From assembly GCA_024275415.1 (NCBI GenBank), contig JAJRZD010000048.1, positions 1-5,114 on the forward strand: DNA of 5,114 nucleotides, in the 5' to 3' direction. This document shows, in pieces, positions 1-5,114 of this stretch. Below the pieces are notes generated by a model. That model was not told the DNA's origin. It ran no database searches and saw only the letters and a list, made by a program, of their open reading frames with translations. Numbering within the stretch: position 1 is the first letter of the stretch; the number at the start of each line of letters is the position of its first letter. This DNA comes from an archaeon. Lineage in GTDB: Archaea; Asgardarchaeota; Thorarchaeia; Thorarchaeales; Thorarchaeaceae. Position numbers and translations under genes: made by a program.

Positions 1-117
1 GTGCTCATCAGACGCTATGGCGCATATCTGCCCGTCAGTTACGGCTAACCCTCCGGTGACCAGTCCTGATTCAAGAAGCAGCCTTGCATTCTTGATTACA
101 AGATCCACGGAGGCCAA
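1..117 (-). CDS. N-terminal fragment of a metal-dependent cyclic amidohydrolase (dihydropyrimidinase/hydantoinase, allantoinase or dihydroorotase-like); runs off the left edge
   Basis: Hand translation of the minus strand from TTG at 117 gives MASVDLVIKNARLLLESGLVTGGLAVTDGQICAIASDEH, open to position 1 (alternative start GTG at 108). This fits the 'DLVIKNaRl...g.lAV.DG.I.AI' N-terminal beta-sandwich typical of the amidohydrolase superfamily. GGAGGA lies 6 nt upstream of the TTG. The HxH metal motif is outside the window, so the subfamily cannot be assigned. Confidence 0.8.
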   Translation of the reverse strand, partial: MASVDLVIKNARLLLESGLVTGGLAVTDGQICAIASDEH

Positions 118-120
118 AGA

Positions 121-402
121 CTATCCTCCTCCAACCGGTGGGAACAATGCCACTGCATCTCCATCTTGAAGAGAGGTGTCGTATCCATCAAGCAGTTCGA
201 TTCTTTTTCCGTTCACCATGCATGAGAAGAACCGTTTCAGCTCTTGCGTTTCGGGGTCAATGACGGTGTCCTCGAACGGTCTACCGTACTTCGATTTCAG
301 CTTTTGGAGCAGATCTCGGATATTCTCTACGTCCATCTCGATTCGGCTGGTCCCAGTGATTTCTCGCACTGTTGCAAAGAACTTGACAGTCACGTTCGCC
401 AT
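121..402 (-). CDS. moaD: MoaD/ThiS-family ubiquitin-like sulfur carrier (SAMP1-like small archaeal modifier protein)
   Basis: 93 aa with N-terminal 'VTVKFFATVREITG', internal 'MVNG' and 'LQDGDAVALFPPVGGG' ending in the diagnostic C-terminal Gly-Gly. An SD-like GAGGTG (420-415) lies upstream of the ATG. Confidence 0.93.
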   Translation of the reverse strand: MANVTVKFFATVREITGTSRIEMDVENIRDLLQKLKSKYGRPFEDTVIDPETQELKRFFSCMVNGKRIELLDGYDTSLQDGDAVALFPPVGGG

Positions 403-492
403 CCTATATCACAGCACCTCAGGAGCAAAAATACAACAGATTATAACGCTTATGACCTCTATGGTGGTGGAAGAAATCCTGGAGGCCAGTTA
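403..492. promoter_or_regulatory. Divergent promoter region with a palindromic TTATAA TATA-box candidate (441-446) and SD motifs for both genes
   Basis: AT-rich 90-nt gap between divergent starts. TTATAA reads the same on both strands, 39 nt from the moaD ATG and 47 nt from the pfkB TTG. GGAGG at 481-485 (+) and GAGGTG at 420-415 (-). Confidence 0.5.
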
Positions 493-1377
493 TTGGAGAT
501 CGTTGTTGTAGGCCATCTTAGTAGGGATCTGATAATCACTCCAAGATACCAACGCGAATCATTAGGTGGAGGAACTGCTTATGCCATGATAGCACCCAAG
601 CTTGGTGCGTTTGGCACTGGCATCATCACTCGCGTAGGCTCTGATTTCGAGCAGGAATATGTCAATTCTCTAAAGGAGTCCAATTTGGATCTGACAGGGT
701 TTCGGACAGCCGGTCCACGGACTACTCGATTCATCAATGAGTATGATGCAAAAGGCAGACGAACCCAAAGAGTGGATGCCGTTGCGCCGGAGATTCGGAT
801 GACCGACTTACAACCACATCATCTGCAAGCGAACATCATGCACTTCTCACCCTTGCTTAATGAAGTTCATACGTCTTGCATCGAGGTGGCCAGGAGGTAT
901 GGCGCTTTGGTGTCGTTGGACATTCAAGGCTACACGCGAACCGAGGAGAATGGACGGGTTGTCCCTACTACATGGGATGAGGCGTTGCAGGTTCTCCGAT
1001 ACGTCGATGTGGTGAAATGTGACACCTCCGAGCTAGAGCTTGCCATGGGCGATGGGACCGAAACTGCGCTCGTCACCAAGATGCTCGCACTTGGGCCCCG
1101 AATCGTTATCGTCACAAAGGATCAGGCTGGCTCATGCATCTATACTCGAAACTCCCAGATCGAGATACCCATGGTCTTGGCAGAGAAAATGATAGACACT
1201 ACAGGCTCCGGAGATACTTACATCATCGGATTCCTTTTGGAGTATATGCGAACTGGAGATGTGAAGCGTGCAGGTCTCTTTGGTGCTACCTGTGCATCCT
1301 ACAATCTTGAAACCGTGGGACCTTATGGTTTACCAACTAGAGCCATGGTTGAGAAAAGGATGAGTTCTTATCTATAG
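493..1377 (+). CDS. PfkB/ribokinase-family carbohydrate or nucleoside kinase (294 aa from the TTG start)
   Basis: N-terminal 'IVVVGHLSRD', 'LGGGTAY', 'RVGSDF', 'VVKCDTSEL', 'IVIVTKDQAGS' and the C-terminal PfkB signature 'DTTGSGDTYIIGF'. The true start is probably TTG 493, with GGAGG 7 nt upstream. The ORF-track start at 244 overlaps moaD antisense. Confidence 0.9.
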   Translation: MEIVVVGHLSRDLIITPRYQRESLGGGTAYAMIAPKLGAFGTGIITRVGSDFEQEYVNSLKESNLDLTGFRTAGPRTTRFINEYDAKGRRTQRVDAVAPEIRMTDLQPHHLQANIMHFSPLLNEVHTSCIEVARRYGALVSLDIQGYTRTEENGRVVPTTWDEALQVLRYVDVVKCDTSELELAMGDGTETALVTKMLALGPRIVIVTKDQAGSCIYTRNSQIEIPMVLAEKMIDTTGSGDTYIIGFLLEYMRTGDVKRAGLFGATCASYNLETVGPYGLPTRAMVEKRMSSYL

Positions 1378-1385
1378 TGATGCGT

Positions 1386-1410
1386 GGCTTGTTCAAAAAG
1401 CCTTTTCAGA
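1386..1410 (+). promoter_or_regulatory. Short hairpin GGCTT-N7-AAGCC followed by TTTT; weak terminator of pfkB, or a BRE/TATA-like element (AAAAAG-CCTTTTCA) for the peptidase gene
   Basis: 5-bp inverted repeat at 1386-1390/1398-1402 plus a T4 tract, 8 nt after the pfkB stop and about 30 nt before the next start. The two roles cannot be told apart from sequence alone. Confidence 0.25.
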
Positions 1411-1435
1411 GCCCACACCTCCTTACGAAAATGGA

Positions 1436-2629
1436 GTGAAATCGATGCTAGCAGATCTTGACGGGCTCATGGCTGAAGCAGGGGTAGATGCCATAGTCCT
1501 TGTGGGGAACGCATTCGAGGTTCCCGATATACTGTGGATGACAGGATTCAGGTCACCTGATGACGTGATAGTAGTCCACAATCGTGATGAGGAAACAATC
1601 GTAGCCTGTGCCTTTCATACCGTGGAACGAGTCAAGAAAGAAGGCTTTGTGAAGCGGACCTATGACCTGACCGACCTCTATCGAGCGTTCATGGCTGAAG
1701 GGAAACGCGCTCGAAATTATCCGGAGCGCGTCCTTGGGGATGTGCTTTCCAATGTCTTCTCAGGCAAGACAATAGGTGTCCCTGAGCATATCCCCGCATC
1801 GAATCTCCTAGCGATCCAGAAACTGGGATATGATGTGAAGCCAGTTCCAGACCTGTTGGTCGATGCCCGTGCAACAAAATCATCTCGTGAGGTCGAGATG
1901 ATAAAGAAGGCAGGCGCAGCTACCATGAGGGCGCTGAGTCAGGTGATTGAGATGATAAAGGATGCAGACATTGACGCCAATGGCAATCTATCGCACAATG
2001 GCTCCCCTCTTACTGTTGGTACGATTAAGAATGCCCTAGATCATGCCCTTTTAGATCAATGGGCAGAATCAGCTGAGGATGCCATCGTCGCGGTTGGCAC
2101 TATGGGGTTTGACTGGCATTATCTCGGCAATCCAGAAGATGTTCTAAAAGCAGGTGTGCCAATCATCATGGATGTCTTTCCGCGATTGAAACGTGAGATG
2201 TATGTTGCAGATGTTACAAGGACTGTGGTGAAAGGATCTCCTGATCCAAAGGTCAAGGAGATGTTTGATGCCGTGAAGGCAGCATCTGATGCTGTAATTG
2301 ATGCGATGACCGATGACGCAAAGATTGATGATGTGAATCTCGCCTGTTACAATACGTTGAAGAGATTTGGATTCGACTCTTCAAGATTGAATCCTGATGC
2401 AGAAGAGGGGATGACTCACAGCCTAGGACATGGTATTGGACTTGCCATCCATGAGAAGCCAAGTATGTATTCTTTGAATGACCACTTCAAAGAGGGTCAT
2501 GTTGTTGCTATTGAACCAGGTGTCTACATCAGGGCATTCGGCGGTGTCCGATTAGAGAATGACTTTGCTATCACCAAGAGCAGACCTGAGCGTCTAACAC
2601 CCGGACTAGACGATGTGATGTATCTCTAG
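1436..2629 (+). CDS. M24B-family metallopeptidase (Xaa-Pro aminopeptidase/prolidase-like) with a creatinase-type N-terminal domain
   Basis: All five pita-bread metal ligands are present: IMDVFPR, ADVTRT, HSLGHGIGLAIHEKP, IEPGVY and GGVRLEND. The start is either GTG 1436 or ATG 1445; the latter has GGAGTGA 5 nt upstream. Confidence 0.92.
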   Translation: MKSMLADLDGLMAEAGVDAIVLVGNAFEVPDILWMTGFRSPDDVIVVHNRDEETIVACAFHTVERVKKEGFVKRTYDLTDLYRAFMAEGKRARNYPERVLGDVLSNVFSGKTIGVPEHIPASNLLAIQKLGYDVKPVPDLLVDARATKSSREVEMIKKAGAATMRALSQVIEMIKDADIDANGNLSHNGSPLTVGTIKNALDHALLDQWAESAEDAIVAVGTMGFDWHYLGNPEDVLKAGVPIIMDVFPRLKREMYVADVTRTVVKGSPDPKVKEMFDAVKAASDAVIDAMTDDAKIDDVNLACYNTLKRFGFDSSRLNPDAEEGMTHSLGHGIGLAIHEKPSMYSLNDHFKEGHVVAIEPGVYIRAFGGVRLENDFAITKSRPERLTPGLDDVMYL

Positions 2630-3723
2630 GCATCAATGGAAAGAGCGTGATACGGACAAACAGAGATGCACATACCGCATCTCTGGCACTTTTCCTCATT
2701 AATGACAAATAGATTCTCCTTCTTGTCCACTGTGATGGCATCGTAGACGCATGACTTGGGACACAGTCCACATCTCGTACACTTTGCATGGTCAACTGTG
2801 GGAATACCCTTCAATTCCACTGGTTCCCGAAGGTGCTTCAACGCCTTCCCCTTGATATCTAGCACAGAGTCATAACCATGCTCGTCGAGCCAAGTGTCCA
2901 TCTCCTTGGCAATTCTCCCATAGACCGTCTGTCCTTCAAGGATTGAGGCAGTACAGACTTCTACCGCCGATGCTCCAGCCATCATGAACTCGATGGCGTC
3001 TGTGCCATGTGTGACACCCCCAACAGCAATGACTGGGAGGTTGACCGCTCTGGCGATATCAGCCACACATTTCATGGCTATCGGTCTGATCGAGGCACCG
3101 CTCATCCATCCCAATCCCTCCTCGCTCCCAAGCACAGGTTTCCCTGTTTCAATGTCTATTCTCAGGCAAGGTCCGAACGAGTTAATTGCCACGATCCCAT
3201 CGACGTACGGCGCGACCTCTTTTGCAACGGCTGCTACATCGACCTTTGGGCTCAGCTTGGCAAAGATGGGAATATCCACCGCATCACGGAGAGCCTTTGC
3301 TATCTCTGCATGACCCCCTACATAGTGGGTTGAGAATTCAAGTGCGTGTACTCCGGCAGCTTCGATTTTGGGGGCAATTTCAGAAACCTCCGCCGGTGTG
3401 TACCCCAGACTGGCTATGAGCGGAAGGGTCGAACTCAGAGCAATAGCATACTCTCGTTCAAGCCATTGTTCCAGCGGAATCTCACTCCAAAGCTCAGCGT
3501 TGAGGATGCCTCTGCGTGAACCTGTCCGTCCTTCTTCTATGGCTGCCATGTTGGGCTTGGGCACATCTGCAGGCCTGATGCTGACAGTCTTGGCAACAAG
3601 ACCTCCAGCCCCTCCCGCAGCTGCATTTAACAGGGTCATCCCATCCCGAGATGTGGGACCTGCAGCGGTAAGCACTGGGTTCCTGAATCTGAGTCCTGCA
3701 ATCTCAACCTCAAGATTGGTCAT
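2626..3723 (-). CDS. Dihydropyrimidine/dihydroorotate dehydrogenase-like FMN TIM-barrel protein (PreA-like) with a C-terminal 2x[4Fe-4S] ferredoxin domain and a non-canonical active-site loop
   Basis: FMN-barrel motifs 'FRNPVLTAAGP', 'AKT', 'LNAELWSE', 'AKLSP', 'AINS', 'GWMSGASIRP' and 'IAVGGV...AIEFMMAGASAVEVCT'. C-terminal CxxCxxCxxxC twice (C315-C325, C346-C356). The catalytic loop reads EFSTHYVGG rather than ELNxSCP. Confidence 0.88.
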   Translation of the reverse strand: MTNLEVEIAGLRFRNPVLTAAGPTSRDGMTLLNAAAGGAGGLVAKTVSIRPADVPKPNMAAIEEGRTGSRRGILNAELWSEIPLEQWLEREYAIALSSTLPLIASLGYTPAEVSEIAPKIEAAGVHALEFSTHYVGGHAEIAKALRDAVDIPIFAKLSPKVDVAAVAKEVAPYVDGIVAINSFGPCLRIDIETGKPVLGSEEGLGWMSGASIRPIAMKCVADIARAVNLPVIAVGGVTHGTDAIEFMMAGASAVEVCTASILEGQTVYGRIAKEMDTWLDEHGYDSVLDIKGKALKHLREPVELKGIPTVDHAKCTRCGLCPKSCVYDAITVDKKENLFVINEEKCQRCGMCISVCPYHALSIDA

Positions 3724-3772
3724 GTCCTCGGCTACTTTGCACTAGATGATAAGGATTCCTCAACTATGATGC

Positions 3773-3793
3773 TGTTATCTTCTTTGAATAACA
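3773..3793. promoter_or_regulatory. Inverted repeat TGTTAT-N9-ATAACA in the AOR to DPD-like intergenic region; candidate operator or RNA hairpin
   Basis: Perfect 6-bp arms at 3773-3778 and 3788-3793, about 50-70 nt upstream of the ATG at 3723. A TTATCA TATA-like box lies at 3752-3747 on the minus strand. Confidence 0.3.
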
Positions 3794-3829
3794 ACAGACT
3801 CAACATCGCGGTTCGATGACACTTCTGTT

Positions 3830-5114
3830 CTAGTTTGCAAGCATGTTCCTCTTCATCAGATCCTGCACCACAAACTCAAGTCCGAGGTTTTCAAGTTTGT
3901 CCTTCTTCGGATATCCAGTTTCCTTGTCACACCCTCTGTACTCGTAGTACTCGTCCAACATGATGTCAAGGTCAGGCAGTCCCCCTTTCGAGGGGCCTGT
4001 GGGCATCGGTTCTGAGAGGAGCCGTGGTGGAAGGTTCTCATCTTTTCTTGTGACCCCAAGCCGGTGGTTGTAAGCACGTCGAAGGTGACTGATCCTCTCC
4101 GCGGCAGTCTTGACGAATTTGAGGTCTGACCATTCACTCATCCCTGTGAGTGGTGCGATGACGCCTGCGAAGGTCTCGTAATAGTAAACTGGAGGCCACA
4201 TCACTGCATACTTGCAGATGACCGCAGAGTCAGTCAATGCATAGAGGTCTTCCATGTCCTTGACGAGTTCACCTTTGTGCGCCGGATTCATGATCTCAAG
4301 GATTTCTTTTGCCTTGTCCTTTCCGAACCGTTCAATTGCAATCTCTGGATAACCAAGCTCCTCAAGACTGGAGAGGCTTCTCAAGTGGTCTGCTCCCCTG
4401 ACATTCGTGGCATAGGTCAGACCGATTGACTGGTGTGCTCTTGGATCCTGACCTGACGCTTCGAGACCTTTCACATGGACTGCGTATTTCCACGCATCAC
4501 CGCCGATAATCTCCGCCGCTTTTCGAGTCCCTTGAGCAAGTATCTTCCCAAAGCCCTCCTGTTTTGCAATCATCTCGACAAGGCGTGCCATCGATTCGTG
4601 ATTGCCCCAGCTCAGATCCAGACCATCTGTATCCTTCTCAGTGATGATTCCTTTTTCCCATAGTTCCAGCGCAAAACCAATGGTCTTTCCGCAGGAGATA
4701 GTGTCCATCCCGAGGAGGTCACATCTCTTGCCCATATGGAATACTGACTCCACGTCGCTATTCAGACAGTTGGAACCAAATGCCATCAGGGTTTCGTACT
4801 CGGGACCGCCAATCGGACCGGTGGCGTATTTTCCTTCCCGGACTCTGATTATGTACTTGCATCCTACTGCACAGCCATGGCAGGCCTCCTGTCCGATACG
4901 ATACCTCTCCGCGATGATCTCGGGACCTATGGAATCAGCATCCTCATAGAACCCGGTCCAGTGGTTCTTTGTCGGGAGTCGTCCTATCTCGTTGATTATC
5001 GCCACTAAGTCAGTAGTCCCATACTTTCTCAGAGAGCCCAACGAGTCTGTCCACAATGGATCCCGAATCCTTCCCATCTCCACCTCATTGGCTTCAAGGT
5101 ACTTGTCCATATCA
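3830..5114 (-). CDS. aor: Tungsten-containing aldehyde:ferredoxin oxidoreductase (AOR/WOR) family protein, C-terminal (AFOR_C) part; the 5' end lies outside the window
   Basis: Motifs 'LPTKN', [4Fe-4S] 'CHGCAVGC' plus a distal Cys in 'DSAVIC', 'GPEYET', pterin-binding 'DLLGMDTIS', 'VKGLE..QDPR', 'RGADH' and 'MLDEYYEYRG..ETGYP'. The frame is open to the window edge (codon GAT precedes the ATG at 5110), so the ~200-aa N-terminal domain is missing. The gene symbol is family-level only; the substrate subfamily is unknown. Confidence 0.95.
   Translation of the reverse strand, partial: DMDKYLEANEVEMGRIRDPLWTDSLGSLRKYGTTDLVAIINEIGRLPTKNHWTGFYEDADSIGPEIIAERYRIGQEACHGCAVGCKYIIRVREGKYATGPIGGPEYETLMAFGSNCLNSDVESVFHMGKRCDLLGMDTISCGKTIGFALELWEKGIITEKDTDGLDLSWGNHESMARLVEMIAKQEGFGKILAQGTRKAAEIIGGDAWKYAVHVKGLEASGQDPRAHQSIGLTYATNVRGADHLRSLSSLEELGYPEIAIERFGKDKAKEILEIMNPAHKGELVKDMEDLYALTDSAVICKYAVMWPPVYYYETFAGVIAPLTGMSEWSDLKFVKTAAERISHLRRAYNHRLGVTRKDENLPPRLLSEPMPTGPSKGGLPDLDIMLDEYYEYRGCDKETGYPKKDKLENLGLEFVVQDLMKRNMLAN

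Follow-up and report, generated by a model that had tools for sequence, protein, structure and literature searches.

The 5.1-kb stretch analyzed here (the window) is one entire contig of a Thorarchaeota genome (positions 1-5114, G000:C27). It carries on its minus strand the gene of a 365-residue protein, P0001, which is probably a UacX-family reductase of an oxopurine ring, most likely that of 2,8-dioxopurine or a close isomer, in anaerobic reductive purine degradation. P0001 belongs to an archaeal branch linked to the tungsten-type aldehyde:ferredoxin oxidoreductase (AOR), and is best filed as a new addition to the recently named UacX family. The original prediction had picked out P0001 as a relative of dihydroorotate dehydrogenase (DHOD) and dihydropyrimidine dehydrogenase (DPD) in which a short S-T-H-Y loop replaces the catalytic Cys loop, and had proposed a distinct, uncharacterized subfamily that uses His or Tyr as proton donor and acts on a different ring or C=C/C=N substrate. 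The features of the protein on which our reading draws are:

2626..3723, minus strand: gene of the putative UacX-type reductase (P0001, 365 aa), a DHO_dh-fold flavin mononucleotide (FMN) barrel with a C-terminal 2x[4Fe-4S] domain (Pfam, AlphaFold model, fold match); the translation is taken from 2629-3723
2629..2799, minus strand: C-terminal ferredoxin domain with eight Cys in two CxxCxxCxxxC motifs (Fer4 Pfam families, matching residues 309-361)
3313..3339, minus strand: active-site loop E129-F-S-T-H-Y-V-G-G, short and Cys-free (translation, alignments, model)
3487..3501, minus strand: N75-A-E77-L-W79; N75 99%, E77 100% and W79 100% conserved in the family, N-x-E as in DPD, with no conserved Trp in SCP-type proteins
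3256..3258, minus strand: K156, the FMN-site Lys of A-K-L-S-P, invariant in the family and in SCP-type proteins
3169..3183, minus strand: N181-S-F-G184-P185; N181, G184 and P185 each 100% conserved, the Asn as in DPD and DHOD (N-T), G-P specific to the family
3106..3108, minus strand: W206 in G-W-x-S-G, 100% conserved in the family and mostly a gap in SCP-type proteins

P0001 is a PF01180 FMN barrel (Pfam DHO_dh, 114.8 bits) fused to a ferredoxin-type Fe-S domain, and according to both Pfam and the structural model it has no domain for flavin adenine dinucleotide (FAD) or NAD(P)H. The eight Fe-S cysteines are at positions 315, 318, 321, 325, 346, 349, 352, and 356. The highest-ranking NCBIfam models were PreA with 176.8 bits (cut-off 335) and class 1 PyrD with 170 and 169 bits (cut-offs 269-270), so that P0001 fails the PreA equivalog cut-off as well as both PyrD cut-offs. 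An AlphaFold2 model built from a 50-row alignment has a pLDDT of 95.9 and a pTM of 0.92, and its best fold matches in the Protein Data Bank (PDB) are domains IV-V of pig DPD (TMq 0.84), followed by DHODs. In this model, strand beta4 ends (residues 127-131) and leads into a six-residue loop (132-137) and then a helix (138-148); a loop of that length would be too short to form a mobile lid.

The predicted sequence of this active-site loop, E129-F-S-T-H-Y-V-G-G at 3339..3313, was confirmed by translation, and the other motifs said to be retained are all present: LNAELWSE (residues 74-81), AINS (179-182), AKLSP with K156, and the eight Fe-S cysteines. The span from E129 to K156 comprises 27 residues, as originally counted, and the loop holds no Cys. 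In pig DPD and in the PreA-like paralog of the same genome (E154 to K197), the equivalent Glu-to-Lys span is 43 residues. The loop is 16 residues shorter than in DPD and PreA, close to the roughly 15 first estimated, having lost S-C-P and 13 further residues, and Ser stands in place of the Asn. This Asn-to-Ser replacement had been read correctly from a hand alignment, but the same alignment had also put His on the Ser and Tyr on the Cys; HMMER and hhalign (probability 100%) instead delete S-C-P and pair H133 with the final His of SCPH, with the proviso that the gap placement within the loop is ambiguous and the alignment of H133 and Y134 is not certain. We also considered C186 as a substitute catalytic Cys and rejected it: Thr, Ala, Val, or Gly occupies this position in many members, and such a variable position is not that of a conserved catalytic residue.

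Conservation across the family argues that the protein is intact, as the original prediction had held. In a set of 400 distinct proteins that have the motif, conservation reaches 100% at S131 and H133 and 99% at Y134; on this sequence evidence, the short Cys-free loop is a hallmark of the family rather than a product of decay. W79, Y108, G184-P185, and W206 are likewise 100% conserved in these SxHY proteins and not in SCP-type proteins, while K45, N75, E77, E129, K156, N181, and all eight Cys, the latter conserved at 99-100%, are common to the family and the DPD-type enzymes. E129, S131, H133, and Y134 do not vary among the close relatives (64-86% identity), which belong to Thor-, Prometh-, and Hodarchaeota. 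A search of 1.8 billion cluster representatives returned 247 matches at E <= 1e-30, ranging from proteins with long E-x-N-x-S-C-P loops to those with several kinds of short Cys-free loops. In a maximum-likelihood tree of 133 proteins, a branch with 98% support separates all SxHY proteins from PreA, PyrD, and the remaining short-loop types. Within the SxHY proteins, those of archaea and those of bacteria fall into separate subgroups. This branch and the family-specific invariant residues uphold the proposed distinct subfamily. In databases, its members go by the names of dihydroorotate, dihydrothymine, or dihydrouracil dehydrogenase, "4Fe-4S binding protein", and even "diguanylate cyclase". A large separate group of DHOD-ferredoxin fusions (among representatives P0135-P0227) has even shorter Cys-free loops (for example E-L/V-V-S-Y) with D/N-S-x-G-P and forms clades of its own.

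A link to a characterized enzyme is provided by the bacterial members. All 119 examined homologs of the bacterial protein P0136, from Thermotogota, Izemoplasmatales, Bacilli, and Clostridium, carry E-x-S-[TV]-H-Y, with Thr in 118 of them. In Clostridium sp. SHJSY1, the gene of the EISTHY protein follows those of YgeX, a guanine-deaminase-like protein (GuaD), YgeY, an Amidohydro_3 protein (UacY-like), MocA, and HyuA-like and SsnA-like proteins, and precedes the genes of the Mo, FeS, and FAD subunits of Xdh, an XdhD-like protein, XdhC, and a UacT-like (urate) permease. On a metagenome contig with the Thermosipho africanus protein, the order is YgeY, YgeW, HyuA-like, SsnA-like, and then the family protein, and at two further loci (L092 and L087) the family protein occurs together with Xdh and SsnA-like genes. 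P0001 is 34% identical to the Clostridium sp. SHJSY1 protein over the full length (E = 2e-73), shares with it the matching EFSTHYVG/EISTHYVG and AINSxGP motifs, and is found on the same side of the 98% branch. The bacterial members are found at the place that UacX has in the reductive uric-acid cluster, and the predicted change of ring can be made more specific, since such purine-catabolic neighborhoods point most likely to an oxopurine rather than to a pyrimidine or orotate.

UacX of Clostridioides difficile (Q181U4) is a PF01180 protein that stands in the place of YgfK beside SsnA (Li et al. 2025, Life Metab 4:loaf031, PMC12507026). In a coupled assay with SsnA and reduced methyl viologen, it converted 2,8-dioxopurine (yanthine) to ureidomethyl-hydantoin, and it was proposed to be ferredoxin-dependent; the same authors suggested that the reduction of 2,8-dioxopurine might be thermodynamically unfavorable (PMC12507026). 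The subfamily can accordingly not be called uncharacterized, as had been supposed, because its bacterial members occupy the position of an enzyme that has been assayed. The Cys-free active site, however, is discussed neither in the searchable literature, where a single relevant paper mentions UacX, nor in the UacX paper itself, in which the word "cysteine" does not occur (PMC12507026).

P0001 and UacX have in common the FMN barrel and the ferredoxin-type Fe-S domain without an FAD/NAD(P)H domain, and UacX, like most bacterial members of the family, is encoded beside SsnA and HyuA-type amidohydrolases. Unlike UacX, P0001 is archaeal, follows Fer4_11 and AOR genes instead of Xdh genes, lacks an adjacent SsnA, and has only about 34% identity to the Clostridium proxy. 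YgfK of E. coli, whose step was independently named DOPOR by Liu et al. (NADPH:2,8-dioxopurine oxidoreductase), probably catalyzes the same step, the reductive dearomatization of 2,8-dioxopurine before SsnA, but is a protein of 1032 aa with a GltD-like FAD/NADPH module. A BLAST comparison of P0001 with YgfK found no significant similarity outside the Fe-S motifs, which makes YgfK an analogue and not a homolog. With DPD (pig domains IV-V), PreA, and clostridial PydA, P0001 shares the fold, the Lys residues of the FMN site, the N-x-E and N-S/T substrate ligands, and the C-terminal 2x[4Fe-4S] domain; it differs from them in having neither the catalytic S-C-P nor the mobile lid of about 16 residues, in the replacement of N668 by Ser, and in the lack of a PreT partner.

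Around the reductase, the window contains the following genes:

3830..5113, minus strand: tungsten-type AOR, 3' part only (Pfam AFOR_C, 407 bits)
1436..2629, plus strand: M24 (creatinase/prolidase-fold) peptidase (Pfam Peptidase_M24, 135.7 bits), convergent with the reductase gene
244..1377, plus strand: PfkB-family kinase (family searches)
121..402, minus strand: small MoaD/ThiS-fold protein with a C-terminal GG (NCBIfam moaD_arch, 81.8 bits)

The AOR gene lies 106 nt upstream of the reductase gene and is interrupted by the contig end. Its 5' part is on another contig of the same genome (C105), together with a Fer4_11 ferredoxin, a PAS kinase, and an amidohydrolase, and the MoaD side of the window continues on contig C46 with the expected genes; the island is therefore split across three contigs in the assembly. 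In relatives, the MoaD-like gene lies upstream of an allantoinase/HyuA-like amidohydrolase, a Fer4_11 ferredoxin, and a second AOR, which in this genome are those found on C46. The order in the Thorarchaeota relatives reads amidohydrolase < PAS kinase < Fer4_11 > AOR > [reductase] > M24 < PfkB < MoaD-like > cyclic amidohydrolase > Fer4_11 > AOR, with the M24 peptidase keeping its position.

We compared 80 genome loci, mostly archaeal with a few bacterial ones, from Thor-, Prometh-, Hermod-, Heimdall-, Baldr-, Bathy-, Kor-/Thermoproteota, Hadarchaeota, Thermoplasmata, Anaerolineae, Bacillota, and Acidobacteriota. All full-length copies of the reductase in these loci carry E-[FLY]-S-[TLV]-H-[YH] and N-[ST]-x-G-P. 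Fer4_11, AOR, and reductase genes are contiguous in this order in most of the archaeal loci, and the AOR stop codon often lies at or overlaps the reductase start. Archaeal loci outside Thorarchaeota add several genes typical of reductive uric-acid breakdown, namely those of an SsnA-like amidohydrolase (33% identity to E. coli SsnA; 400.7 bits, cut-off 444), a HyuA/allantoinase-like amidohydrolase (30% identity to HyuA), YgeW-like carbamoyltransferases, a YqeA-like carbamate kinase, and YgeY-like M20 peptidases. In this genome and in the other Thorarchaeota, the linked amidohydrolases are only HyuA/allantoinase-like and DadD-like.

Several variations on this arrangement were observed. In some Thorarchaeota (L001:6118-7956; also L013, L018, L020, L024, L025, L028, L029, L031, and L077), the AOR and reductase genes are separated by the gene of a CLC-type channel with CBS domains, which breaks their otherwise tight pairing. 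A threonine-synthase-like pyridoxal-phosphate enzyme (347.6 bits; ThrC cut-off 303) is encoded next to or near the reductase in archaeal loci (L004:2295-3554, L051, L055, L060) and in an acidobacterium (L087, 11276-12580), and may be a stand-in for YgeX or serve in removing a ureido group. We rejected it as a YgeX ortholog because it scores above the threonine synthase cut-off and only 24 bits against YgeX. The archaeal-type arrangement also occurs in a metagenome-assembled genome of Bacillota (L072, 1-18844), where the reductase is accompanied by two Fer4_11-AOR pairs, a third AOR, and YgeW/YqeA-like genes. The reductase of this locus clusters with those of archaea, and this suggests that the module was transferred as a whole between the domains.

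How a DPD-like barrel could reduce a purine without the Cys may be pictured as follows. The two [4Fe-4S] clusters of the protein would pass low-potential electrons to the FMN in the TIM barrel, and the oxopurine ring, once reduced, would be primed for hydrolytic opening by the neighboring amidohydrolases. Judging from the product structures, C6 would gain a hydride and C5 would become sp3, which parallels the action of DPD on C6 and C5 of uracil; FMNH2 might donate the hydride to C6. The proton could come from the invariant H133/Y134 pair, in the manner of Old Yellow Enzymes, which use a Tyr as the proton donor. It is also conceivable that C6=N1 is reduced with protonation at nitrogen, followed by tautomerization, in which case neither a carbon-directed Cys acid nor a mobile lid would be necessary. 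The invariant aromatic residues W79, Y108, Y134, and W206 might make for a flatter pocket that a bicyclic substrate could fill.

The electrons are here probably delivered by the adjacent four-cluster ferredoxin and the tungsten AOR instead of NAD(P)H or an Xdh-type partner. The upstream AOR is nearest to genuine AORs, with 414 bits to P. furiosus AOR (1aor) and 397 bits to AorB (8c0z), and keeps the catalytic Glu/His positions (E-Y-E and His) and the four Fe-S Cys of the P. furiosus enzyme; an altered active site was looked for in this alignment and not seen. The Fer4_11 partner is similar to the polyferredoxin domain that two E. coli proteins, AegA and YgfT, contain; NCBIfam names both as "formate-dependent uric-acid utilization proteins". 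A complex prediction of the reductase with the polyferredoxin of the same genome scored 0.00, a value obtained without controls that carries no weight for or against. On the most economical reading, Fer4_11 and AOR form the low-potential electron supply for the reduction, while a chemical replacement of Xdh by AOR is possible but unsupported. A bolder proposal, which we advance only tentatively and regard as doubtful in its entirety, is that the Fer4_11 ferredoxin, the tungsten AOR, and the Cys-less UacX-like flavoprotein constitute one electron-wired unit of the first archaeal pathway of reductive purine degradation, in Asgard archaea and those related to Bathy-, Kor-, and Hadarchaeota, in which a tungsten-pterin AOR module replaces the Mo/Se Xdh-type enzyme and the invariant His-Tyr pair replaces the Cys of DPD as the proton relay. 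In such a unit, AOR might feed aldehyde-derived electrons of very low potential directly into the reduction of the purine ring or might itself act on the purine.

The assignment to oxopurine reduction has to be weighed against several observations. In the Thorarchaeota cluster, the amidohydrolase AmA resembles DadD/TRZ-ATZ deaminases more closely than it does SsnA, this genome has its SsnA-like gene unlinked on contig C80, the Thorarchaeota cluster has no Xdh, and family members at three loci (L081, L086, and L091) stand without any such cluster. The canonical Glu/His and Fe-S ligands of the partner AOR leave its contribution ambiguous. Membership in the family of the assayed UacX is drawn from synteny and the Clostridium sp. 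SHJSY1 proxy, not from the sequence of Q181U4 itself, and the identity of only 34% to this proxy, together with the separate archaeal and bacterial subgroups, means that the substrate may differ. The archaeal AOR-linked subgroup might thus combine a UacX-like fold and mechanism with another N-heterocycle as the substrate, such as a different isomer of an oxopurine, a hydantoin, or a ring derived from a pyrimidine, in an undescribed nucleobase pathway. The same low identity and separate archaeal subgroup would fit this alternative, as would a Thorarchaeota cluster that has a DadD-like amidohydrolase, an M24 peptidase, and a PfkB kinase but no Xdh, YgeX, or adjacent SsnA, and whose allantoinase-like amidohydrolase reaches 344 bits against the allantoinase cut-off of 357.85. 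We nevertheless judge it unlikely, as the family-specific pocket residues are invariant in both subgroups and sister archaeal lineages have SsnA-, YgeW-, YqeA-, and YgeY-like genes beside the Fer4_11-AOR-reductase set.

A role without any dedicated heterocycle substrate would make P0001 the third subunit, carrying flavin and Fe-S clusters, in a tungsten AOR complex of three parts; it would relay electrons between AOR and a small acceptor or donor in the role of AorC. AorABC of Aromatoleum aromaticum (PDB 8c0z) likewise has the genes of a Fer4_11-type polyferredoxin, AOR, and a flavoprotein in a row, the order Fer4_11, AOR, reductase is the usual one in archaea, the AOR gene in many lineages ends where the reductase gene begins or overlaps its start, and the AOR is a canonical AOR/AorB-type enzyme. 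However, the flavoprotein here, known as a partner by gene order, is an FMN enzyme of the DHOD fold with its own Fe-S domain, and AorC is a non-homologous FAD/NAD-binding protein. Bacterial members lack AOR altogether but keep every family-specific residue and always adjoin ring-opening amidohydrolases, the substrate-binding Asn residues of DPD are retained, and a CLC channel gene separates AOR and reductase in several Thorarchaeota, all of which leaves this relay role with a low probability. Lower still, and in our opinion hardly credible, is the possibility that P0001 is simply a dihydropyrimidine or dihydroorotate dehydrogenase in which the Cys has been lost and another residue serves as the acid, even though PreA, PyrD, and DPD are the top NCBIfam and PDB matches and homologs bear the UniRef label "dihydrothymine dehydrogenase". 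The scores are far under the cut-offs (PreA 176.8 against 335, PyrD 170 against 269), the loop Asn is Ser at position 131 and the lid is deleted, and the gene neighborhoods are of the purine type. Moreover, P0001 is the third paralog in its genome, which already encodes a canonical PyrD (ELNLSCPH) beside PyrK and a 423-aa PreA-like protein (ELNVSCPH), so that the housekeeping and pyrimidine-catabolic roles are filled.

Reduction of an oxopurine by a UacX-family enzyme would give a likely function to a widely misannotated protein of many anaerobic archaea and bacteria, with homologs in gut protists, and would indicate that an enzyme on the DPD scaffold need not have the textbook catalytic Cys and mobile lid to function. 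For Asgard and other sediment archaea, it suggests reductive purine degradation in which tungsten AOR modules take the place of the Mo/Se xanthine dehydrogenases used by bacteria; this is relevant to the turnover of nitrogen and carbon in anoxic sediments and to the reach of the 2,8-dioxopurine pathway.

The PreA-like paralog is directly upstream of an aldehyde dehydrogenase gene, as read from sequence alone (L006:1231-2502 and 2558-3721, G000:C45), and PreT is absent from its surroundings; the paralog may be a pyrimidine reductase of the ferredoxin type. The open reading frame of the PfkB kinase in the window is listed with 377 aa, about 80 residues beyond its orthologs, and its Pfam match begins at residue 86; the true start is probably internal and later than listed, since the relatives have only 270-301 aa. 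Its best NCBIfam matches include ribose-1-phosphate and nucleoside kinases, all below cut-off. Eukaryotic homologs of the reductase were also found, one with an E-F-S-C-H-Y loop (P0275, L090:10001-11137) on a Hadza-gut contig among WD40, bZIP, and Mpp10 genes and another (P0286) with an E-L-S-T-Q-H loop in Tritrichomonas musculus, which suggests transfer into anaerobic protists.

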